A stretch of DNA of 64,000 bases from an uncultured Candidatus Nitrosopelagicus sp. (lineage in GTDB: Archaea > Thermoproteota > Nitrososphaeria > Nitrososphaerales > Nitrosopumilaceae), in NCBI GenBank assembly GCA_964344885.1, contig CAYFOW010000001.1:15278-79277 (forward strand), read 5' to 3'. Of the stretch, positions 1 through 58,798 are shown in pieces. Both the position numbers and the translations under genes were made by a program. Each line of letters begins with the position of its first letter. Positions within the stretch are counted from its first letter, which is position 1. Under the pieces are notes generated by a model, which was given only the letters and a program-made list of their open reading frames with translations, had not been told where the DNA came from and made no database searches.

Positions 1-2
1 AT

Positions 3-170
3 GATGGAAACGGACACTCACATGTTAGAGCATCATTACTAGGACCATCACTATCGATTCCATTTTCCAATTCACAGATGTTTTTAGGAACATGGCAACA
101 GATCATACTAATAGAATTTGACATCAAACCAAGAACGCGAGAGATTGTAATTCAGATTTTTGGAGAATAG
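3..170 (+). CDS. YjbQ/UPF0047 family protein, 3' end only (5' truncated by the window)
   Basis: Manual translation of frame 3: DGNGHSHVRASLLGPSLSIP...LGTWQQIILIEFD..PRTREI..QIFGE*, the typical YjbQ C-terminus. Confidence 0.85.
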   Translation, partial: DGNGHSHVRASLLGPSLSIPFSNSQMFLGTWQQIILIEFDIKPRTREIVIQIFGE

Positions 171-668
171 ATGATCATAATTTTATGTGGATTGCCAGGA
201 GTAGGTAAAACTACACTGGCAAGACAGATTGCACCGCTAATTGATGCAGACATTATTTCTACAGATAAAATAAGAAAAGTTCTCTTCAAAAATCCAACTT
301 ATAGCAAACAAGAGAGAAGCATTGTTTGGAAGACTATGATCTTAATTGCAAAGCAATTGAACAAAAGAGGAGTGAGTTGTATTTTAGATGCAACATTTAA
401 CAGAGAAGAATCAAGAAAAGAAGCAAGAAGAATTATCGGTAAGAAAGATTTTTTCATTATACAATGCAGTTGTCCAGAAAATGTAATACTTGATAGACTC
501 AGTAAAAGAAAAGGCGGAGACTCTGATGCAGGAATTGCAGTGTATAAAAAAATGAAACGTATTTTTGAACCAGTGTTAATGCCGCATATTGATATCTGTA
601 CGGATTTGTCTGCAAAAAACAATGCACAAATCATCTTAGAACAGATTAACCATGCATTAAAAAAATAA
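171..668 (+). CDS. P-loop kinase/ATPase (AAA_33-like)
   Basis: GLPGVGKT Walker A, ILDATF Walker B-like motif, 165 aa. Confidence 0.8.
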   Translation: MIIILCGLPGVGKTTLARQIAPLIDADIISTDKIRKVLFKNPTYSKQERSIVWKTMILIAKQLNKRGVSCILDATFNREESRKEARRIIGKKDFFIIQCSCPENVILDRLSKRKGGDSDAGIAVYKKMKRIFEPVLMPHIDICTDLSAKNNAQIILEQINHALKK

Positions 669-684
669 ATGAAACAAAACCATA

Positions 685-1299
685 TTGCATATATTGAAAT
701 TCAATATTTCTGATGAAGATGGAGAAACTTTAGTAAAGCTTGCACGACGTGCAGTAACAAAATTTTTGTCAGATGGTCAAAGATTAGTCATATCTTCAGA
801 ATTACAAAAAAAATTTAATTTTAATTCAGGGATTTTTGTCACCCTGAATAATTCATTAGGATTAAGAGGTTGTATTGGGTTTCCATTACCAAACAAAAAG
901 CTTTCAGAAGGCATTGTAGATGCTGCAATTGCAGCAGCTACTGAAGATCCACGGTTTGTTACAGTAAGCACAGATGAGTTAGGTGAGATAGTATTTGAAG
1001 TGACCATTCTATCACCTCCTGAAGAAATTTTGGTTTCAGATCCACTAGAATATCTAACAAAGATTAGAGTAGGAAGAGATGGGTTAATCATTACCAGCAG
1101 ATATAATTCAGGATTGTTACTTCCTCAAGTTCCAATTGAATATGGGTGGAATGAAGAGCAATTTTTAGGATATACGTGTGAGAAGGCAGGATTACCTAAT
1201 GATTACTGGAAAAAAGGGGATGTAAAAATTGAAAAATTTGAGGGAGTGGTTTTTCAAGAAGAAACACCTAATGGCATAATTGAAAAAAAGAGAATTTAG
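685..1299 (+). CDS. AMMECR1-domain protein (TIGR00296; AmmeMemoRadiSam protein A)
   Basis: GIFVTL...LRGCIG, EDPRF, GLLLPQVPIEYGW, LCEKAG-like motifs. Confidence 0.92.
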   Translation: MHILKFNISDEDGETLVKLARRAVTKFLSDGQRLVISSELQKKFNFNSGIFVTLNNSLGLRGCIGFPLPNKKLSEGIVDAAIAAATEDPRFVTVSTDELGEIVFEVTILSPPEEILVSDPLEYLTKIRVGRDGLIITSRYNSGLLLPQVPIEYGWNEEQFLGYTCEKAGLPNDYWKKGDVKIEKFEGVVFQEETPNGIIEKKRI

Positions 1300-1334
1300 A
1301 AAATACTAATCTAAAACCATGATAAAATGATAAT

Positions 1335-2171
1335 ATGGTAAATAGAGAACCTGTTGTTTCAGGAATGTTTTATCCAGGAAATAAACAAGATTTAGAAGAA
1401 TTAGTGAGGGGTTGTTTTTTACATGAATTTGGGCCAGGAAAATTACCACCAAAGGTTACAGGGGAAAAGATTTTTGGCATCATCTGTCCTCATGCAGGAT
1501 TAATTTATTCAGGACCAATTGCATGTCATTCATTTTATCAAATTTCAGATACCAAATCAGAATTGGTCATAATAGTTGGACCAAATCATTATGGGGTGGG
1601 GCAGAGAATTGCTACAACAGCAGATGATTCATGGAGCACACCGTTTGGAAAAGTAGAGATTGATACTCAGATAGCAGAGCAACTAAACAAACTTTCAGAA
1701 CAAATTAAAATTGATTCAGATTCCCATTCTCAAGAACATAGTATCGAAGTACAGATTCCAATTCTTCAAAAGACATTTACACATAATTACAAAATTCTTC
1801 CAATTTCACTACTTGATCAAAGCATAGATTCAGCAAAAATGGTTGGGAATGTAATTGCAAGAATTGCCAAAACAAATAATTCAATAATTATTGGTTCTTC
1901 GGATTTTACACATTATGAGACAAATGAATTTGCATATTTACAAGATTCTGCATTAATTGAGCCAATTTTAGAGATGAATGTAGATAAGATGTATGAAATA
2001 TTACAAGAAAAACAGGTTACATCATGTGGATATGGTGCAATGGCATCAACTATCACAGCATGCAAAGAATTAGGTGCAACTAGAGGTATATTGCAAAGAT
2101 ATGCAACAAGTGGAGATGTTCAAGGGGACAAAAATAGAGTTGTTGGATATGCATCAATAATTTTTGTATAA
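1335..2171 (+). CDS. MEMO1 family protein (AmmeMemoRadiSam protein B)
   Basis: REPVVSGMFYP, PHAGLIYSG, GPNH, EHSIEVQ, SSDFTHY, SCGYG, VVGYAS. Confidence 0.92.
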   Translation: MVNREPVVSGMFYPGNKQDLEELVRGCFLHEFGPGKLPPKVTGEKIFGIICPHAGLIYSGPIACHSFYQISDTKSELVIIVGPNHYGVGQRIATTADDSWSTPFGKVEIDTQIAEQLNKLSEQIKIDSDSHSQEHSIEVQIPILQKTFTHNYKILPISLLDQSIDSAKMVGNVIARIAKTNNSIIIGSSDFTHYETNEFAYLQDSALIEPILEMNVDKMYEILQEKQVTSCGYGAMASTITACKELGATRGILQRYATSGDVQGDKNRVVGYASIIFV

Positions 2172-2432
2172 TAATATTTTCAGAATTAGAATAGATGATG
2201 TCATAATTTCAAGAATAGTTTCAATGATTTCAGTATAGTTTCATTAATTTTAGTCATTATTTCTTACATGGATTTTGTGCCTATATTGAGTATAATTATA
2301 ATAAAACAATTAAAACATCAGTATTAGGTTCAATGCAAAACTAGAACTAGTAAAATCAAGATGAGATTTAAGATACATTGATGTGAAAGAGGACTATTAG
2401 CAGATTCTCAAAAATAGGGGAAAAAGGATATC

Positions 2433-2674
2433 TTGGAAAAACTTTCCAAAAATACCAAAAAACTTTCTGTAACAATTTAGGACTTTCCAAAAACTGAAAA
2501 AACTTTCCAAAAATACCAAAAAACTTTCCAGACTTGTACAATAACTTTACAGCATAGATTTTTGATTTACGTATACGTAAAATATCAATTAGTTTCAGAT
2601 TATAAAGTACTGATAACTTTCAGAAAGATTTTTTGTTAAAATGGAAAGTTTTGTGTTTGTACAGGAAAGTTTCC
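2433..2674. repeat. Palindrome-centred phased repeat element, copy 1
   Basis: TTTCC-type cores at 2443, 2464, 2484, 2504, 2525, 2546; palindrome TTTACGTATACGTAAA at 2566-2581; reverse cores at 2602, 2622, 2643, 2664. Confidence 0.9.
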
Positions 2675-2812
2675 TCAAAAAACAAACATGTAACTCATTA
2701 TTTTGTAAAGTATTGATTCATTTCATATTTTAAAAAAAACTAGTGTGTTGAGAAAATGTCCAATTAAATGATTTTTGAAATTTTTTGAGAAAAGAGAGGG
2801 GTAAAGGCAATT

Positions 2813-3763
2813 TCAAGGTTTTAACAGAACTTTTAGCATTCCAGGTTTTTTTGCGCGTTCAAGTGCATCATCAAATTTTTCAAGTGGAAATACAGAATCA
2901 ATCAAATCTTCAACTACAACAAGGCCAGATTCAAGTGCATTAATTGCAGGTCTGAATGGACCGCAACGAGAACCTACAATAGTGACTTCATCAATTATTG
3001 CAGGTGTCAAATCAGGCTTATTATGAGATGCTACAGTAGATTTGAGGATAATTGTTCCACGAGGCTTTACAAGAGTCATTGCATCAGAGAATCCAGAAAT
3101 ATTTCCAGTTGCTTCAATTACAAAATCAAATTTTGATTCATCATTTGAATTAATTCCAATTTTGGTAGTTACATCGTATGGATTTAATTTTTCAAGTTTT
3201 TCTTTGTGTTTTCCATAACAAACAACATCATTACAAGAATTTTTTATTACTTGAACAATTAATTGTGCCAAGCGACCATCGCCCACAATTGCAACTTTAG
3301 AATTCAAATCAATGTTAGTTTGTTCAAGTATTTCAAATGCAGCAGCCAATGGTTCTACAAATACGGCCTGTTTATCAGTTAAAGAGTCTGGAAGGACATG
3401 CAAGTTTTTTTCAGGAAGTGAGAGAAATTGTGCATAAGCACCATCACGATTCAATATTCCCAATACAGTTCTATGTGGACAATGTCGTTCAAGGTTTTTT
3501 TTGCAAAAATTACAATTTTTGCACCCTACATTAATTTCTCCAACGACTTTTTTTCCAATAAGATCTTTGTTTTCAGAGTTTATGACTTTGCCAACAAATT
3601 CATGTCCTAAGATTCCAGTATAACCCATGTATCCTCTTAGAATTTCTAAATCAGTTCCGCATATTCCTGCCAACAAAACTCTAACTAATGATTCACCAGA
3701 TTTAGGCATAGGGTAATCCGTTCTATAATGTAATTTTTTTCCATCAAAAACTACTGCATACAT
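2813..3763 (-). CDS. Zn-dependent alcohol dehydrogenase (MDR family)
   Basis: CGTD, GHE, structural Zn motif CxxCxxC...C, VEPLAAA. Confidence 0.92.
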   Translation of the reverse strand: MYAVVFDGKKLHYRTDYPMPKSGESLVRVLLAGICGTDLEILRGYMGYTGILGHEFVGKVINSENKDLIGKKVVGEINVGCKNCNFCKKNLERHCPHRTVLGILNRDGAYAQFLSLPEKNLHVLPDSLTDKQAVFVEPLAAAFEILEQTNIDLNSKVAIVGDGRLAQLIVQVIKNSCNDVVCYGKHKEKLEKLNPYDVTTKIGINSNDESKFDFVIEATGNISGFSDAMTLVKPRGTIILKSTVASHNKPDLTPAIIDEVTIVGSRCGPFRPAINALESGLVVVEDLIDSVFPLEKFDDALERAKKPGMLKVLLKP

Positions 3764-3909
3764 ATAGAAAATATTAAGTCAGTATAATTAAAAATGATGA
3801 GTTTTGCGACAAATCCATCTACAGAGTTATGAAAAGCGAACATCACATGATAATCAAAGAGTAATGAATTCAAAAAAGGTTAATCAATGAAAAAGAAAAA
3901 AATACAATA

Positions 3910-4251
3910 TTGATTAAGGCAGAGGTGATTTTTCCTTTACAGTATCTAGATATTGTTTATAGGGCATTGAAAAAATTTGGAGTAGACAACATTTTCATTA
4001 CAAAAGGGGAAAGTAGAGGATTTTTTAATCCTACAAGACGAATGACTCAGAGAGGAACAAAGATCTTTCAGCCAGAATTATCGCCAACGACTAAAATGGA
4101 GATAATCATTAAAGAAAAAGATGTGCCACAAATTACAGCAGAGATTGCACATATTACAAAAATGTCATCACAAGGTGGTGCAAAAGGAGGCAAGATTCTC
4201 ATCCAACGAATTGAGACAATCGAAGATCTGAACAAAATTGAGTTAAGATAA
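3910..4251 (+). CDS. Divergent P-II family protein
   Basis: 113 aa; SRG..., T-loop-like RGTK, KMEIII, GGKILI aligns by eye to the P-II GDGKIF; TTG start. Confidence 0.65.
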   Translation: MIKAEVIFPLQYLDIVYRALKKFGVDNIFITKGESRGFFNPTRRMTQRGTKIFQPELSPTTKMEIIIKEKDVPQITAEIAHITKMSSQGGAKGGKILIQRIETIEDLNKIELR

Positions 4252-4288
4252 AAAGAATTTAGATAGTTATGAAAAATGTTGCCAAAAT

Positions 4289-4510
4289 TTATGGCATCAT
4301 TGGTTTTTGTGAATAGTATGTTTTTCTATACATGTGTCTAACGCCCATGAATAGAACTACAGTACCAACAATTGAACCAGTAATCATTAACAGATTATCA
4401 AGTGGTTCATGTGATGGTGTCACAACTACTGTAGATTCAAATGCGTATGCCTGGCCAAGAGCCATTGATACTGCAACTGTCAACAGTGCTGCAAAAAGTA
4501 AGGATTTCAT
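4289..4510 (-). CDS. Small secreted/membrane protein, copy 1 (signal peptide, TM helix, basic tail)
   Basis: Signal peptide ending AYA, hydrophobic helix, paralog at 7735-7953. Confidence 0.75.
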   Translation of the reverse strand: MKSLLFAALLTVAVSMALGQAYAFESTVVVTPSHEPLDNLLMITGSIVGTVVLFMGVRHMYRKTYYSQKPMMP

Positions 4511-4572
4511 AAATATAGTAACTCAGAACTTGCTAATAAAACTACTATCAAATGATAATCAATTGATTATCA
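4436..4572. repeat. 137-bp exact direct repeat, copy 1 (copy 2 at 7879-8015)
   Basis: Base-by-base comparison; covers the first 25 codons of the small ORF plus 62 bp upstream. Confidence 0.9.
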
Positions 4573-4579
4573 TTTGATA
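4546..4579. promoter_or_regulatory. 34-bp perfect palindrome (three ATCA-WW-TGAT units at 11-bp spacing), putative operator
   Basis: TATCAAATGATAATCAA|TTGATTATCATTTGATA in a divergent promoter region. Confidence 0.7.
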
Positions 4580-4644
4580 ACTATCAATTATCAAACTTGA
4601 TAATATGACATATATGATATATGTGAAAACGAGCAATTATCAAC

Positions 4645-5223
4645 ATGAAAAAAATTGAGGCCATAGTAAAAACTGCGAATTTTTCAGGATTACGAGATGA
4701 ATTACTCATAATGAATCAAATTATTTTAGATCATAGAAACCTTTCAACATCAAATGTAGTTAGTAAAAGAGGAGGTAGTAGAGTTGGAAGTACTGGATTG
4801 CAAAGCATTCCGTTGACAAAGATCGAACTAGTAGTAGATGATAAATCAGCACACGATATAATCAAAGTAATAGCACAAAAATCAGGATTAGGTGCAGAAT
4901 CAAAAAGTAAGATCTACATTTCGGAGATGATTGAGGCAGTAGACATGGATACAATGGAAGGGCACTCAGATAAAGAAGAGGTAAAAACAAAAAAAGTTGC
5001 AAAGATCAAAGTAAAAGAATCAAACAAGGCAAGACTAATTCCATTGCAAAAATACACACTAAACAGAATTTCAGAAGTATATGAAAATAACAAAGAACGA
5101 CTGCAATCAGAATTCAGAATTAAATCATTTTCAGATTTTGTTAACTTTTGCATAATGGGTTATTTGCCTGAAATTGAGCAACAGTTAGCACAAGAGCTAA
5201 TCATGTATGAGAGAAAATTCTAA
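4645..5223 (+). CDS. P-II-like protein with C-terminal RHH-like extension, paralog 1
   Basis: MKKIEAIVK, KIELVVDD, KIYIS; tail ...IKSFSDFVNFCIMGYL. Confidence 0.75.
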   Translation: MKKIEAIVKTANFSGLRDELLIMNQIILDHRNLSTSNVVSKRGGSRVGSTGLQSIPLTKIELVVDDKSAHDIIKVIAQKSGLGAESKSKIYISEMIEAVDMDTMEGHSDKEEVKTKKVAKIKVKESNKARLIPLQKYTLNRISEVYENNKERLQSEFRIKSFSDFVNFCIMGYLPEIEQQLAQELIMYERKF

Positions 5224-5231
5224 ATTAAAAA

Positions 5232-6023
5232 TTAGATTTTTTCATAATTGTGTTCGTCTAAGAATTTATCCCATGCGATAATTCCGCCTTCTAGAACCTG
5301 GAATTGGATCCCGTCTTGTGCTAATTGATATGAGGCAATTGTTGCCCTATTTCCAGAACCGCAAATTACTACAACAGGAGTGTTTTGAGGAATTTCATGT
5401 ATGGAATCAAATTCAAAGATATTTGAAATCGGAATGTTAACACTACCAGATATCATAGTTTTTTCTAGCTCATGTGGTTCACGAACATCAAGTAAAAAGA
5501 GTTCATCATTATTTTTTAGACTAGACCATAATTCAGATGAAGTGATAGTAGGAGAAAGATTTGAGCTGATCAGAGAATCATTCCAAGACATCATGCCATT
5601 TTTAAGGTAATATGAAGAAAAACCATCATTTGTTAGAGATTTGTGGACGTCAGGAGAAATATTTCCATCTGAATCAACTACAATAAGAGTAATTTTTTCA
5701 TCAATCTCGGATAATCTAGAATGAATTGTTTTCATTCTCTTTTCAAGGGTTTTTTCCTCAAATTCATCAAATGCAGAACCAGGGATATGTCCTAGGATAT
5801 AATCATCAATAGAGCGAATATCAATTACAAATGTCAAATCATTTTTTGATAAAACAGATAATTCTTCAGAAGTGATTTCACCAGGAACAACCATTTCAGA
5901 TGGATTGATTACAAATGCCACAGCGCCAATGATAATAACAATTGCAGATAATACATAGACAATTTTTAATTTAACAGAATACATGTTATTGCATAAATTA
6001 AACATCATAAATAATTTACACAT
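5232..6023 (-). CDS. Membrane-anchored tandem rhodanese-domain protein
   Basis: N-terminal TM; IDIR...GHIPG and LDVRE...SGSVNIP; active-site-like VICGSGNRA only in domain 2; true start may lie downstream. Confidence 0.85.
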   Translation of the reverse strand: MCKLFMMFNLCNNMYSVKLKIVYVLSAIVIIIGAVAFVINPSEMVVPGEITSEELSVLSKNDLTFVIDIRSIDDYILGHIPGSAFDEFEEKTLEKRMKTIHSRLSEIDEKITLIVVDSDGNISPDVHKSLTNDGFSSYYLKNGMMSWNDSLISSNLSPTITSSELWSSLKNNDELFLLDVREPHELEKTMISGSVNIPISNIFEFDSIHEIPQNTPVVVICGSGNRATIASYQLAQDGIQFQVLEGGIIAWDKFLDEHNYEKI

Positions 6024-6068
6024 ACAGGCACTTTTGAAGTAGAATAAAATAAGAAAATGAGTTGGGGT

Positions 6069-6398
6069 TTAAAGCCCAGATTGACCGTTTGTGATGTTAT
6101 ATGTCTCTTCAATTGGTGAGACAAGAATTATTCCATCACCAGAGCTTCCCGTTTTTGCCTCTTTTAGAATGCAATCAATTACAGTTTGTTTATCAGAGTC
6201 ATCTACTATAGTAGTGAACTCTATTCTATCTGCCAAATCAATTACATAGGTAAGGCCTCTATGGGATAGGGTTTGTGGTTCACTTTGACCTAGGCCTCGA
6301 ACATTTGAGACCGTAATACCAAAGTTTCCAGCACTCTTTAGAGCAGTCTTAACAGAATCTAGTTTTTCGGATCTAATAACAGCAGTTATCCGTTTCAT
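6069..6398 (-). CDS. glnK: P-II nitrogen regulator (GlnK/GlnB) coupled to amt
   Basis: AVIR, VRGLGQ, TGSSGDGII; 4-bp overlap with the amt stop. Confidence 0.85.
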   Translation of the reverse strand: MKRITAVIRSEKLDSVKTALKSAGNFGITVSNVRGLGQSEPQTLSHRGLTYVIDLADRIEFTTIVDDSDKQTVIDCILKEAKTGSSGDGIILVSPIEETYNITNGQSGL

Positions 6399-7633
6399 TT
6401 CGCTTCTCCCGGATATGCTATTTCACCGTGTAATGCAATATCTTCGCCCATTTCTTCTTCCTCTTCGGTAACCCGTATTGGTTTGAAGAAGTTTATCAAC
6501 TTCAAAATTGCCACCGTACCACCGAAACAGAACAACGCCGTTGCAACTGTTCCAAGTAATTGTACTGGGATCAATTCAGCTGAGCCGTATACAAGACCAG
6601 TGTGAGCACCGCTTGTAATATACGGAGAAGCAAATAGTGCGATTGCGATTGCACCCCAGACACCTGTAAGTCCATGGATTGCGATAACATCACATGCGTC
6701 ATCAACCTTGTACTTTTCTTTAATAAGCAAGATTCCTCCAAAGAATACGAGTCCTGAAACAAGTCCAACTACTAGACCAGCCCATGGCTCGATAAATCCT
6801 GCTGCTGGAGTAATACCAGCCATACCTGCTATTGCACCGTTTGCACCCATTGATGTACTTGGTTTTTTGGTTTTATACCAAGCAGCAAGCATACAAGTCA
6901 AAGCACCACCAGCAGCTGCTAGATTAGTTCCAACAATTGCGGTTACTGCAATTCCATCAGCAGCAAGAGCACTTCCACCATTGAAGCCATTCCAACCTAA
7001 CCAGAGTAAGAACATTGCAATGAATTGATATGGAATGTTGTGACCTTGGGCGACTTTGGCAGTTCCAAAGTCTTTTCGTCTTCCCAAAACCAATGCTGCT
7101 GCAAGAGATGCAAATCCTGCAGATACATGCACAACCCATCCGCCGGCAAAGTCAAGACCGCCTAATTCGGCAAGCCAGCCTCCACCCCAAACAGAGTGTG
7201 CCAAAGGTGTGTAGATAACTATCATCCAAATTGGGATGAATGCCAACCAGGCACCAAATCTCATGCGTTCTGCAATTCCTCCAGAAATGAGCGCAATTGT
7301 AATTGCAGCAAACATTCCCTGATACAAGAAAATTAAGTATCCAGGAATTGTTGGGGCAAGATCAAGGGGTTCCATTCCCACATTCATCAAGAATGCATAA
7401 TCCATGCCGCCAATGATTCCCATGCCACCGACGTCTGAGCCAAATGCCAAGGTAAATCCAACTGCAAACCAGGTGATCAAACCAAACATTGCAGTTGCCA
7501 AAACTTTCATGAAAATTGATGCAGTGTTCTTAGAGCGGATTAATCCAGCCTCTAGTAAACCTACACCACCGATCATCAGAAGTACAAGGCCTGTGGATAC
7601 CATTATCCATGTTGTGTCTCCTGAATCTATCAT
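6395..7633 (-). CDS. amt: Ammonium transporter (Amt)
   Basis: DFAGG..VH and DV..IHG twin His, WNGFNGGS, YQGMFA, C-terminal EEEEMGED..HGE.AY. Confidence 0.97.
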   Translation of the reverse strand: MIDSGDTTWIMVSTGLVLLMIGGVGLLEAGLIRSKNTASIFMKVLATAMFGLITWFAVGFTLAFGSDVGGMGIIGGMDYAFLMNVGMEPLDLAPTIPGYLIFLYQGMFAAITIALISGGIAERMRFGAWLAFIPIWMIVIYTPLAHSVWGGGWLAELGGLDFAGGWVVHVSAGFASLAAALVLGRRKDFGTAKVAQGHNIPYQFIAMFLLWLGWNGFNGGSALAADGIAVTAIVGTNLAAAGGALTCMLAAWYKTKKPSTSMGANGAIAGMAGITPAAGFIEPWAGLVVGLVSGLVFFGGILLIKEKYKVDDACDVIAIHGLTGVWGAIAIALFASPYITSGAHTGLVYGSAELIPVQLLGTVATALFCFGGTVAILKLINFFKPIRVTEEEEEMGEDIALHGEIAYPGEAK

Positions 7634-7734
7634 GATTGTTAGATGAGGTCAGTTCATTGCATTTAACTAATAATAAATTTCGTAATAGTTTGATTGGAAA
7701 ATGATAATCAAAAAAGGGGTTTATGAGCCAAAAT

Positions 7735-7953
7735 TTATGGCATCATTGGTTTTTCAGTAACCCAAGATTTTCCATACATGTGCCTAATGCCCATGAATAG
7801 AACTGCAGTACCAACAATTGAACCAGCAATCATAAGCAGGTGATCTGTGGCACTCTGGGGGGATACAGTTACTGTTGGTTCAAATGCGTATGCCTGGCCA
7901 AGAGCCATTGATACTGCAACTGTCAACAGTGCTGCAAAAAGTAAGGATTTCAT
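7735..7953 (-). CDS. Small secreted/membrane protein, copy 2
   Basis: Paralog of 4289-4510 with an identical signal peptide. Confidence 0.75.
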   Translation of the reverse strand: MKSLLFAALLTVAVSMALGQAYAFEPTVTVSPQSATDHLLMIAGSIVGTAVLFMGIRHMYGKSWVTEKPMMP

Positions 7954-8015
7954 AAATATAGTAACTCAGAACTTGCTAATAAAACTACTATCAAATGATA
8001 ATCAATTGATTATCA
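7879..8015. repeat. 137-bp exact direct repeat, copy 2, including the 20-bp palindrome TGATAATCAATTGATTATCA (7996-8015)
   Basis: Identical to 4436-4572. Confidence 0.9.
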
Positions 8016-8069
8016 AAATTATACCAAATAATGTCTATTTTAAATGCGATTAGAATTACAGAATTCACA

Positions 8070-8699
8070 TTGAAGAAAATTGAAGCCATTGTCAAGACAG
8101 TGAATTTCTCAGCAATTCGTGATGAGCTTTTGATGATGGGTCATTTAGTTATAGATCATAGAAATCTTACAACATCAAATGTTGTAGGTAAGAGAGGAGG
8201 TAGTAGAGTTGGAAGTTCAGGACTTCAAAGTATACCGTTAACAAAAATGGAATTAGTAGTAGACGATAAATCAGCACATGAAGTTATCAGGGTGATCTCT
8301 CAGAAATCAGGGTTAGGTGCAGAATCAAGAAATAAAATCTACATTTCAGAGATGACTGAGGCAGTAGACATGGATACAATGGAGGGACATGTGGAATTGG
8401 AGCCAACTGAAAAACCAGAATTAGAACAATTAGAGATACAGCCTCAAAGTATAGAAATTAAATCAAGTGTAAAAAAGCCGAAAATCAGATCAGATGGGAA
8501 AAAGAGTCGTCTTGTCCCCTTACAAAAATATACACTTAATCGAGTAACAGAGATTTATGATAAAAATACAGATAGGTTGAGATCCGAATATCGTATTAAA
8601 TCATTTTCAGATTTTGTAAATTTCTGTATTTTAGGATATTTGCCAACAATTGAGGAGCAATTAGCACAGAAGACAATAATGTATGAGAGGAGATTTTAG
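8070..8699 (+). CDS. P-II-like protein with C-terminal RHH-like extension, paralog 2
   Basis: ORF track 8031-8699; TTG at 8070 gives MKKIEAIVK as in paralog 1. Confidence 0.75.
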   Translation: MKKIEAIVKTVNFSAIRDELLMMGHLVIDHRNLTTSNVVGKRGGSRVGSSGLQSIPLTKMELVVDDKSAHEVIRVISQKSGLGAESRNKIYISEMTEAVDMDTMEGHVELEPTEKPELEQLEIQPQSIEIKSSVKKPKIRSDGKKSRLVPLQKYTLNRVTEIYDKNTDRLRSEYRIKSFSDFVNFCILGYLPTIEEQLAQKTIMYERRF

Positions 8700-8840
8700 A
8701 TGTTCGGTTTATTTAGCAAGATAGGAACAAAACTTGAATACAAAAAAGGGAAGAAATACCAGGGTAAGGTTTCAATTGTCATGGTAGGATTAGGAGTAAC
8801 ATTTCTAATTTTATCAGCATTGTTTATGCTAACCCAATAA
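8700..8840 (+). CDS. 46-aa tail-anchored membrane microprotein
   Basis: Manual ORF MFGLFSKIGTKLEYKKGKKYQGKVSIVMVGLGVTFLILSALFMLTQ; ATG directly follows the upstream stop. Confidence 0.5.
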   Translation: MFGLFSKIGTKLEYKKGKKYQGKVSIVMVGLGVTFLILSALFMLTQ

Positions 8841-8862
8841 TGAAATCTATTCTTTAAAGAAA

Positions 8863-8997
8863 TTAAGAAGTTTCTTTTTTAGATGATTTCTTATTTACTT
8901 TTTCATCCCATTCTAAACCCATTTTTGCACAATAGATTTCTTCTAGCTTTGCTAAATCTTCAGATGTGATTTTCTTTTTATTTCCAAGTAAATTCAT
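8863..8997 (-). CDS. 44-aa hypothetical microprotein
   Basis: Manual ORF MNLLGNKKKITSEDLAKLEEIYCAKMGLEWDEKVNKKSSKKETS. Confidence 0.4.
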   Translation of the reverse strand: MNLLGNKKKITSEDLAKLEEIYCAKMGLEWDEKVNKKSSKKETS

Positions 8998-9221
8998 AGC
9001 AAAAATTTCTAAACATTATAGATAAGGAATTCTAGAAATGAATATCAAATAATTACAAAGTGATTTACAGCAATTAAGAAAATTAAAAACAGAAAATTTT
9101 TAGTAAGAAGTACAAATTATTATGAATTAGATATATGATCTAAACTAGAGCTAAAATCATATGAAATAAAATAACTAAAATTTCAATATCAAAAACTATT
9201 ATCAAATGATCTACAATTTCC

Positions 9222-9815
9222 ATGGCGGATAAATATCATGTTTTTAAAAAAAACCTAATGTTAATTACGGATTCAGTGAATTATAGTGAAATTTGCAATG
9301 ATGTGATGCAAAAAGATCAAGCTGTCAGATATGTAGGAGTGTTAGGAAGGAGTGGAGAAATGTTAACTGAGAGATACAGACATGATGTTCAGAGCATACT
9401 TAATGAAGAAGAAACCAGAATGGCACGACATTATGCATCAGCAAAATGGGAAATGCGTAAAACGCTTGAACATAAAATAGGCAAAGAGAAAATGGCCATT
9501 TCAATTTATAACAACATCACACAGATTTCAGTTCCGCTAAACAATCAAGAATTATTGCTGATTAGTTTAGATACAGATTATGATCAGAGTAAGATTATAG
9601 ATAAATTTATCAACATTGCATCAACGTTTCAGAAAATTAATGAGTGGTTAAATCAAGAAATTCCAATTGAAGAGTTGCGCAAGAAAGATTCAGAAGAACT
9701 AATCAAACAAAAAGAATTTTTGGAACAAAAAGCATCAAGCTTTGATCCAGTGGTAAAGAGCATTGTTAAAAAAAATATCAGGCATATCAATTCAGTTCTA
9801 AAAGAAATTTGTTGA
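9222..9815 (+). CDS. DUF6659-like (roadblock/profilin-like) protein with charged C-terminal extension
   Basis: VRYVGVL...G....R, LEHKIGKEK..IS.Y..I.QISVPL pattern. Confidence 0.6.
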   Translation: MADKYHVFKKNLMLITDSVNYSEICNDVMQKDQAVRYVGVLGRSGEMLTERYRHDVQSILNEEETRMARHYASAKWEMRKTLEHKIGKEKMAISIYNNITQISVPLNNQELLLISLDTDYDQSKIIDKFINIASTFQKINEWLNQEIPIEELRKKDSEELIKQKEFLEQKASSFDPVVKSIVKKNIRHINSVLKEIC

Positions 9816-57238: not shown

Positions 57239-58207
57239 ATGCGTGGTAAAAAGAAAATTCTGTTAACACGGAAATTACATGAATTTGCATTAAAAAAATT
57301 AGAAAAAAAATATGACATAAAAATCCATTATGGAAAAATTCCAATGCCAAAACGAAAGTTAATCAAAGAAATTCATAATATGGATGGACTAATTTGTTTT
57401 CCGTATGACATTATTGATAGAGATGTAATTGATAGTGCAAGAAAATTATTAACAATTAGCACATTTAGCGTAGGATTTGATCATATAGATATCAAATATG
57501 CAAAAAGTAAAGGAATTATTTTAGGATATACACCAGAGGTATTAACAAAAGCTACTGCAGATTTAACGATTTCATTAATGCTTGATGTAATGCGAAGAAT
57601 TTCAGAAGGAGACAGATTAATCAGAAATGGGAAATGGAAAGAGATTTTTGGTGCACATGATTACGTAGGAGTTGATATTTCAGAAAAAACACTTGGAATT
57701 ATAGGATTAGGAAGAATTGGAGATGCAGTGGCAAAAAGAGCATCAGCATTTGAAATGAATGTAATTTATCATAACAGAACAAGGCTTTCAAAGAAAATTG
57801 AGGATCATCTCAATGTAAAATATGCATCATTAAATGAATTGATAAAAAAGAGTGATGTAATTTCATTACACGTTCCAGATTCACAAAGTACTAGAGAAAT
57901 GGTAGATATGGAATTTCTAAAAAGGATGAAAGATAATGCATTTTTAATTAATACATCTAGAGGAAAGATCATCAAAGAAAATGATCTAATTAGTGCATTA
58001 AAACAGAAAGTTATTGCCGGTGCAGGATTAGATGTTTTTTTTAATGAACCAATCAATAAAAGCCATAAACTAACCAAAATGGAAAATGTTGTTTTAGCAC
58101 CACATATTGGAAGCTCTACAAAAGAAACACGGGAAAAAATGGCACAAATAACAATAGATAATTTAGATCAAGGAATTAAGAGATTAAAACCGAAATATTC
58201 AATTTAA
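57239..58207 (+). CDS. D-isomer-specific 2-hydroxyacid dehydrogenase (glyoxylate/hydroxypyruvate reductase-like)
   Basis: SVGFDHID, GIIGLGRIG, INTSRG, AGLDVF.NEP, PHIGS. Confidence 0.93.
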   Translation: MRGKKKILLTRKLHEFALKKLEKKYDIKIHYGKIPMPKRKLIKEIHNMDGLICFPYDIIDRDVIDSARKLLTISTFSVGFDHIDIKYAKSKGIILGYTPEVLTKATADLTISLMLDVMRRISEGDRLIRNGKWKEIFGAHDYVGVDISEKTLGIIGLGRIGDAVAKRASAFEMNVIYHNRTRLSKKIEDHLNVKYASLNELIKKSDVISLHVPDSQSTREMVDMEFLKRMKDNAFLINTSRGKIIKENDLISALKQKVIAGAGLDVFFNEPINKSHKLTKMENVVLAPHIGSSTKETREKMAQITIDNLDQGIKRLKPKYSI

Positions 58208-58263
58208 TTTAAAAAGAGATTGTAAAAAATAATTTTCTGATCTGTTACTGTGATTTCTATCAA

Positions 58264-58453
58264 CAGAAATTTCCATATGATCAGACAATCTTTCCATAAA
58301 TTTTCAAAACTTTCCAAAAACTGAAAAAACTTTCCATGTTCATTTCAGAACTTTCCAAAAATCACTATAACTTTCAATAGTTATTTGAGATTTTACGTAT
58401 ACGTAAATTATATCATAATAGCATAATGGAAAGATTTGTGGGATAATGGAAAG
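58264..58453. repeat. Palindrome-centred phased repeat element, copy 2
   Basis: TTTCC-type cores at 58270, 58291, 58311, 58331, 58352, 58372; TTTACGTATACGTAAA at 58392-58407; GGAAAG at 58428 and 58448. Confidence 0.9.
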
Positions 58454-58513
58454 ATTATGAGTGTATTTGTCAAGAAATTACTCAATTAAATAATCATTAG
58501 TGTAGATTACAGA

Positions 58514-58798
58514 TTATTTTTTCATGGTGAGATCAATTTGTATAAGTTCATCAGGGTCACTTCGAATACAATCAGTTCCAATTGCCTTTAATTCATTGAA
58601 TTGAATCAATCCTTGTGGAAGCTTCTTTTGTTCTTGTAAAAGACGTAATTTGCCACGGACTATATTTTTATGACGCACACAGGTTACTCCAACCATATAT
58701 TCATCAGATTCTACAGAAATTGAAATAACAAAATTTGGAGGGTTAACACAATCTCTGCCACTTTCTTTTACTGAACATCGGTCAGGAATCAATACCAT
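58514..58798 (-). CDS. Small hypothetical protein, possible Zn binder
   Basis: C..., C.NPP, C..H residues; 94 aa. Confidence 0.65.
   Translation of the reverse strand: MVLIPDRCSVKESGRDCVNPPNFVISISVESDEYMVGVTCVRHKNIVRGKLRLLQEQKKLPQGLIQFNELKAIGTDCIRSDPDELIQIDLTMKK

Follow-up and report, generated by a model that had tools for sequence, protein, structure and literature searches.

A clade-restricted, non-coding insertion in a Candidatus Nitrosopelagicus genome, with phased sites around a palindrome that may form a nucleoprotein platform

The 64,000-nt stretch of DNA analysed here (the window) carries two copies, A and B, of a non-coding element in which arrays of short, helically phased sites face a perfect 16-bp palindrome from both sides. 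Comparison with related genomes reveals that the element is a clade-restricted insertion of approximately 320–345 bp, present in four copies in this genome and in others in sister species, and that it is mobile on an evolutionary time scale, landing at the 3′ ends of converging genes or of a tRNA gene. Judged from its sequence, this mobile element probably works as a stereospecific nucleoprotein platform. In the first-pass annotation, copy A had been proposed as a site where a nucleoprotein complex assembles, with a dimer at the centre and phased flanks, and this proposal fits both the spacing conserved in the four paralogs and the purifying selection on the resident copies. Copy A occupies positions 2441–2670 of the window, and its parts and neighbours are as follows.

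1335–2171, plus strand: Memo-family gene, 3′ end towards copy A
2318–2816: copy A insertion, maximal extent (the contig of a close relative joins 2317 to 2817)
2441–2550, plus strand: copy A left arm, six ACTTTCC-type forward cores with A-rich spacers
2566–2581, no strand: copy A perfect 16-bp palindrome, TTTACGTATACGTAAA
2602–2670, minus strand: copy A right arm, four reverse cores at 2602, 2622, 2643 and 2664
2813–3763, minus strand: zinc-ADH-type gene, 3′ end towards copy A

The forward 7-mer cores start at 2441, 2462, 2482, 2502, 2523 and 2544 and comprise four exact ACTTTCC, one ACTTTCT and one ACTTTAC. The reverse cores are ATAAAGT, AGAAAGA and two GGAAAGT, the inner two being degenerate, and an additional degenerate core in phase with them is found near 2705. 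The palindrome and the phased cores previously placed at 2433–2674, and the convergent gap of 641 bp between the Memo gene (plus strand) and the ADH-type gene (minus strand), are indeed present in the sequence; the earlier coordinates of the reverse cores match ours, those of the forward cores are 1–2 nt off. Palindromic outer ends had also been described and do exist in copy A (TTGGAAA-AAC-TTTCCAA and GGAAA-G-TTTCC), but they do not stand as a feature of the element: they are mutated in the orthologous copy A′ of a relative and missing from copies B–D, and are therefore considered incidental. Homology between A and A′ stops near position 2740.

Several observations concern the surroundings of this locus. 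Two tandem 20-bp units of the AGAATAGTTTCAATGATTTC type lie 3′ of the Memo gene (window 2212–2251) and are kept in close relatives, and the contigs of two relatives stop at or just short of them. Exact look-ups of the Memo and dehydrogenase proteins gave no entry, and contigs with the Memo gene of a relative break off shortly after it. At the A junction of the relative carrying A′ (locus L115:1076–2260), approximately 1.2 kb of additional DNA separates A′ from the ADH gene and contains two short CBS-like ORFs, of which a paralogous pair is found on contig C16 of the present genome. Upstream of the window and just into it (C1:6585–15983, reaching window positions 1–706), this genome holds approximately 9.4 kb of additional genes, the flanks of which are adjacent in four of the five congener loci compared. 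The 1.34-Mb genome is approximately 0.2 Mb larger than those of its congeners.

Scanning the whole assembly (1.34 Mb in 64 contigs, 33% G+C) for the exact 16-bp palindrome yielded four occurrences, at C1:17843 (copy A), C1:73669 (copy B), C7:2557 (copy C) and C45:336 (copy D), against approximately 0.002 expected from base composition; A and B are separated by only 56 kb. The heptamer ACTTTCC is not enriched genome-wide (163 observed vs. 161 expected), and 28 of the 163 occurrences fall in the four loci. When the scan was made blind to the motif, accepting any 6-mer repeated in a chain at 19–22 bp, these loci and one coding tandem repeat were all that it recovered. A fifth near-palindrome at C7:36038 was discarded as a copy, being a 14/16 match inside a gene, presumably that of ribosomal protein S17e from its translation, and probably due to chance; perfect 21-bp coding tandem repeats follow it (C7:36038–36200) and run into an assembly gap. 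Copy B is found at 58268–58454 of the window, in the following setting.

57239–58207, plus strand: D-2-hydroxyacid dehydrogenase gene, 3′ end towards copy B
58208–58531: whole copy B insertion, from comparison with congeners
58288–58356, plus strand: left-arm block, four strong cores and their spacers, 68/69 identical to the sister species
58392–58407, no strand: copy B palindrome, the identical 16 bp
58428–58454, minus strand: copy B right arm, two reverse cores GGAAAGA at 58428 and 58448
58514–58798, minus strand: 94-aa ORF, 3′ end towards copy B, last five codons derived from the insertion

The four copies share one geometry. In all of them the left cores start 22, 43, 64, 84, 104 and 125 bp before the palindrome, with degenerate A(T/G)TTTCT sites beyond them at approximately 145 and 163 bp, and the right cores, which read inward, lie 27, 47, 68 and 89 bp after it (109 and 130 bp also occur). 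The core consensus is A-ACTTTCC-A and the cores follow one another in steps of 20–21 bp on each arm, the right arm missing mirror symmetry with the left one by 5 bp, half a helical turn. The innermost core is always a variant (ACTTTAC, ACTTTCA, ACTTTAT or AATTTCA), and the spacers have diverged among the copies except for the block ACTTTCC-AAAAACTGAAAAA-ACTTTCC, which is common to A, B and C. The left arm measures 182–184 bp in B and C, where the right arms of 124 and 145 bp are one unit apart; perfect tandem 21-bp units occur within C and D, and A′ is longer than A by one 21-bp unit. The array gains and loses whole 21-bp units, and the element as a whole carries 10–14 phased sites arranged from the centre, with a variable number of outer sites. 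Small ORFs to the right of copies B, C and D were considered as a further shared feature and dropped, as they bear no relationship to one another.

Comparison of the loci with those of congeners defines the insertions. At site B the same two converging genes are found in 16 of 16 congeners, their stop codons overlapping by 4 bp (TTAA; seen, for instance, at loci L087, L088, L092 and L094), and the present genome holds approximately 320 additional bases (58208–58531), which have destroyed the stop codon of the 94-aa ORF so that it now ends in ...LTMKK, five codons into the insert. At site C, five congeners were inspected: two have the stop codon of a Dam-type methylase gene immediately next to the 3′ end of tRNA-Thr, and three have flanking matches that lie approximately 340 bp closer together than in the present genome, which has 343 additional bases (C7:2375–2717). 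At congener loci L099 and L101 the methylase stop overlaps the discriminator position of the tRNA, and the extreme packing of congener sites B and C leaves no terminator space. Site A is empty in a relative of approximately 89% identity, recovered from brine and seawater metagenome contigs, where 2317 is joined to 2817 with 104 other letters between them; this relative holds other copies, since other contigs of the same runs match the palindrome and right arm at approximately 82%. The element is thus polymorphic for presence at orthologous sites, as are MITEs.

The range of the element is narrow. The palindrome does not occur in 200 genomes of the same family, 16 of them congeners, and three phased cores were found in 400 family genomes (44 congeners) in coding 21-bp repeats only. 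Searches of IMG/VR and JGI metagenome contigs recovered nothing related to the element: 26 IMG/VR matches to three phased cores proved to be unrelated tandem repeats, and four IMG/VR matches to the palindrome lack cores, so that no viral or plasmid relative was retained. The first-pass annotation had named absence from relatives, or spacing not conserved in them, as evidence against its proposal; absence is largely what we observe, and the sister species nevertheless keep the spacing. What has to be given up is the view that the element organises chromosomes throughout Nitrososphaerota, because of the absence from 44 congeners and approximately 400 family genomes, the clean insertions at B and C and the empty site A.

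An insertion of this kind raises the question of transposition. At the boundaries of B and C no convincing target-site duplication was recognized (GAG at C and a single A at B being possible ones), nor were convincing att repeats, and the left end of C resembles the tRNA 3′ end only weakly. The search for terminal inverted repeats gave only core-like inverted matches of 11–12 nt, subterminal and approximately 15 nt from the left boundaries of B and C. No rve transposase is encoded in the genome, no gene is flanked by arrays, and neither genome nor pangenome offers an autonomous partner with matching ends; a DDE remnant on C11 lacks the motifs and has unrelated ends, and a weak TnpB-like match is unrelated. 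An integrase fragment read from motifs beside A′ in the relative has no Pfam support. Reclassification as a casposon end, envisaged earlier, finds no match either: the single Cas1 of the genome belongs to a Cas4-Cas1 module beside a CRISPR-like repeat, and there are no cores there. This adaptation module (C2:1–1700, with the CRISPR-like repeat at the contig start, then Cas4 and Cas1) is noteworthy in that the genome is one of a marine member of the Nitrosopumilaceae and its chromosome is small.

The element could nonetheless be purely selfish and non-autonomous, or MITE-like, with the cores as binding sites of a transposase or recombinase, the palindrome as an internal remnant and no function in place. 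The ends of Tn7, Mu and IS21 carry multiple binding sites for their transposases or recombinases, and presence or absence at orthologous sites, the clean insertions at B and C, the low copy number in a restricted clade, the inward-facing arrays on both arms, the subterminal inverted 11–12-mers and a location in convergent gaps, where landing is least harmful, all agree with such an origin. We consider this reading unlikely, because cores and palindrome are conserved in resident orthologs, which is unexpected for a dead insertion, because the sites are laid out from the centre instead of from the ends, with a varying number of outer sites, and because no target duplication, rve-type transposase or partner was found apart from the DDE remnant with its unrelated ends. 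The element shares with MITEs, with the Correia/NEMIS repeats and their IHF sites and with REP/BIME sequences a non-coding length of a few hundred bp, multiple copies polymorphic for presence, a preference for gaps between converging genes and restriction to a lineage. It differs from them in that neither clear terminal inverted repeats nor a target duplication nor an autonomous partner was found, in its mere four copies, and in its centre-anchored set of 10–14 phased sites under purifying selection in place. With attP-type sites and the ends of Tn7 and Mu it has in common a length of approximately 240–340 bp, a central symmetric site and opposed arrays of arm sites; unlike attP, however, it keeps its palindrome intact in the middle of the copy after integration, and att repeats were not found. 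Since the palindrome is intact inside integrated copies, it is not the crossover site.

The evidence for selection in place, which favours the preferred reading of a nucleoprotein platform, comes from a comparison of cores and spacers in only two orthologous pairs, A/A′ (ENA contig, locus L115) and B/B′ (Logan contig, locus L112), for which the identity at four-fold sites of the flanking genes is 0.84 and 0.81, respectively. Pooled over both pairs, changes affect 8 of 158 positions in cores and palindrome vs. 59 of 258 in spacers (Fisher P = 4.6e-7). In B/B′ the left-core block is identical at 68/69 positions (P = 8e-6) and the palindrome at 16/16, whereas the outer left arm, inner linker and right arm are at 0.79–0.835 identity, about neutral; in A/A′ the cores are almost unchanged and the spacers heavily substituted. 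As the cores were defined on this genome, which biases against the constraint result, the test is conservative. The substitution pattern indicates purifying selection on cores and palindrome in the resident copies while the spacers drift. Gene conversion among copies may account for part of the core conservation, given the likeness of the A′ spacers to those of copy C, but the invariant palindrome and geometry are not easily explained in this way.

The same comparison bears on the possibility of a structured nucleic acid, be it a long RNA hairpin, a small RNA or a DNA cruciform. The inverted cores give the arms a complementarity of 71–77%, and single strands fold modestly better than shuffled sequences (z −2.9 and −2.6), with pairing confined to the cores. 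The arms are, however, unequal in length and 5 bp out of register, and they do not co-evolve, because the right arm drifts between B and B′ while the left block is conserved. Rfam 15 gave no match at gathering score in the four loci other than the neighbouring tRNA-Thr, and its two weak sub-threshold matches lie outside the element. The cruciform or long hairpin mentioned in the first-pass annotation is therefore weak, with fold z values of about −2.6 to −2.9 and no co-evolution of the B/B′ arms, and we regard any reading of this kind as extremely improbable.

All four copies stand at convergent gene ends (for D this holds for the right-hand neighbour only, the contig ending on the left), which is the outcome of the mapping against convergent junctions suggested earlier and which upholds the earlier view that a promoter role is unlikely. 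The same location could point to a transcription stop or insulator between converging genes that benefits the host, acting through oligo-T tracts with or without a protein roadblock. Indeed, the congener gene ends overlap without space for a terminator, the bottom strand of the left arm shows repeated T5–T6 tracts, T4–T6 tracts are present on the top strand in the right arms of A, C and D, and the conserved left block of copy B includes A/T tracts. On the other hand, there are only four such sites in the genome, no T-run lies near the cores in the right arm of copy B, and T-runs suffice for archaeal termination, which has no need for a 16-bp palindrome and a phased 7-mer. A host-beneficial terminator thus seems quite unlikely to us, and a platform for proteins remains the preferred reading.

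Two lineage-specific candidates for these proteins are listed here with their contig coordinates, together with the island that holds the first of them.

C5:~430–9790: lineage-specific integrated plasmid-like island of approximately 9 kb, with the AbrB-type gene inside
C5:4922–5083: 53-aa AbrB/MazE-fold gene
C57:2317–3033, cut by the contig end: ParB/RepB/Spo0J-family gene (TIGR00180, PF02195)

The only other cluster of ACTTTCC in the genome consists of three TTACTTTCC within 57 bp (C5:4847, 4865 and 4897; chance approximately 4e-4) and falls within the promoter of the 53-aa AbrB/MazE-fold gene, a fourth core being located downstream of this gene. The gene matches PF04014 (8e-8) and TIGR01439 (2e-9), and its promoter cores are spaced by 18 and 32 bp, not by 20–21 bp. 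Most cores of the element read TTCCA followed by an A/T run, the exceptions being the degenerate innermost and outermost ones. Sites of AbrB and Abh in B. subtilis consist of TGGNA/TNCCA joined by A/T runs (PMC3025583), and the cores bear a resemblance to them. Both the determinants and a linked AbrB-fold gene, as in an AbrB-type operator array, can therefore be recognized in the sequence. Because of the three exact cores in its own promoter and the TNCCA/TGGNA determinant in the cores, the 53-aa AbrB-type protein is the likeliest core binder, a candidate put forward on co-occurrence and family properties.

The island around this gene has no DNA homolog in five congeners. It encodes an integrase-like gene, a C2H2 zinc-finger ORF, defence-type genes (GmrSD/Schlafen and EVE) and a 623-aa protein, relatives of which are known only from marine Thaumarchaeota and stand beside an integrase gene in 2 of 2 cases checked; the language-model features of this protein match plasmid and viral P-loop primase-helicase-type proteins, suggesting that it is replication-helicase-like. 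The ParB-family gene on C57 matches TIGR00180 over the whole model with 79.9 bits, above the cut-off of 58.45, and close orthologs are missing from 17 congeners; the gene is divergent to a coiled-coil ORF at least 498 aa long, and no parA was seen upstream of the truncated gene. ParB-family proteins typically read palindromes of approximately 16 bp, and on co-occurrence and family properties this protein is a candidate binder of the palindrome. Neither palindrome nor array is found in the C5 island (22 kb inspected) or in the 820 bp upstream of parB, which gives no obvious sign that the element serves either module as its cis site.

With iteron and centromere arrays (R1 parC/ParR, pSK41 parC, the omega heptads of pSM19035, MraZ boxes) and with the TGGNA pairs of AbrB/Abh the element shares helically phased short motifs, A/T-rich spacers, turnover of whole units and a cooperative occupancy by several dimers, which is inferred here. 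The R1 parC/ParR, pSK41 parC, omega-heptad and MraZ-box arrays are bound by small dimeric β-sheet DNA binders. The element departs from them in its inverted arrays around a separate palindrome, its two-turn spacing and its occurrence as dispersed insertions of approximately 330 bp at gene ends, not beside the operon of a binder.

The presence of a ParB-family protein and of phased arrays brings in two further readings. The canonical replication origin is the following.

C14:13188–13578: canonical replication origin, upstream of the single orc1/cdc6 gene

It contains a 33-nt ORB box twice in direct and once or twice in inverted orientation around a long A/T-rich stretch, and has only the word TGGAAA in common with the element. 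The positions of sites B and C were mapped on the complete congener G048 (approximately 1.2 Mb), assuming large-scale synteny: cdc6 lies at 0.3–1.5 kb, site C at approximately 260 kb and site B at approximately 909 kb, and sites B and C share the same absolute orientation. The mapping against oriC/cdc6 proposed with the first-pass annotation thus places the sites away from oriC; if large-scale synteny holds, they would be mid-replichore, neither origin-proximal nor fork-trap-like.

A conserved host site for chromosome organisation, either a parS-like centromere or a site of SMC loading, as named in the first-pass annotation, would account for a 16-bp palindrome in several dispersed copies and for the genuine ParB-family gene in the genome. 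The bacterial parS consensus is TGTTNCACGTGAAACA, from which, as generally quoted, the palindrome TTTACGTATACGTAAA differs at most positions. Together with the absence of the element from all congeners and family genomes searched, the recent gain at site A, the distance from the origin and the absence of a copy in the 820 bp upstream of parB, this makes a conserved host site scarcely probable. The likeness to ParB-parS and KorB-OB consists of the perfect 16-bp palindrome (13-bp in OB), the TTTA...TAAA arms, the dispersed copies and the ParB-family protein encoded in the genome; the sequence is different, the copies are not origin-proximal and are flanked by specific iterons, no ParA is seen beside the truncated parB, and relatives lack the element.

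An additional replication origin or initiator site, serving the helicase-like protein of the island or Orc1/Cdc6, is suggested by the resemblance of inward-facing arrays around an A/T-rich palindrome and of two-turn iteron phasing to origins, by TGGAAA in the reverse core as in the ORB of this genome, by the replication-helicase-like protein encoded on C5 and by the map positions of sites C and B, approximately +260 and −290 kb from cdc6 on the complete congener. The element is not the canonical origin, which adjoins cdc6 on C14 with different boxes, and a supplementary one is very improbable given this ORB origin beside the single cdc6, the distance of just 56 kb between copies A and B, the lack of such an array in the C5 island, the lack of a GC-skew signal on contig C1 and the absence of the element from congeners. 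With regard to iteron origins, the two-turn phasing is present, but the element does not adjoin a rep gene, and an array is lacking in the island that encodes the helicase-like protein. The inward-facing repeated boxes around an A/T-rich centre and the word TGGAAA recall archaeal oriC, in contrast to which the element is multi-copy and mobile, the true ORB using longer, different boxes beside cdc6.

Returning to the platform, we propose that a dimer, possibly of the ParB family, would be seated on the central palindrome and that small sequence-specific dimers, possibly of the island's AbrB-type protein, would read the cores on each arm, one per two helical turns. Core quality falls outward and at the innermost site, a pattern that would suit an assembly proceeding cooperatively from the centre. 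The element would then be the cis site of a protein set derived from a mobile genetic element (MGE), with a role in tethering or in a partition-like process, or in titration of the regulator of the island. Our best guess is accordingly an MGE-linked cis site in preference to a housekeeping function of the chromosome. A more specific version, in which a gene-free mobile cassette plants portable, high-affinity centromere- or tether-like pads for the ParB-family protein (on the palindrome) and the AbrB-type protein (on the cores) at several gene ends of the chromosome, and in which the host or the integrated plasmid comes to depend on them, we consider unlikely. If true, it would amount to a spreading of cis-acting chromosome-organising sites, which is undescribed in archaea, and the pads would serve segregation, tethering or local chromosome folding of the host or of an integrated plasmid.

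Hardly anything has been charted in ammonia-oxidising archaea of either non-coding mobile elements or platforms that bind proteins in cis, and the present element unites two properties that are usually exclusive, recent gain at new sites and purifying selection on the motifs once resident. It comes with two lineage-specific candidate binders, of AbrB type and of the ParB family, both of which can be tested. Should they not be confirmed, the element would still add a novel type to the MITE-like repeats of archaea, one in which phased sites are exceptionally numerous; should they be confirmed, it would provide a defined DNA-protein system for studying the way in which archaea acquire architectural, segregation and insulation sites from mobile DNA.
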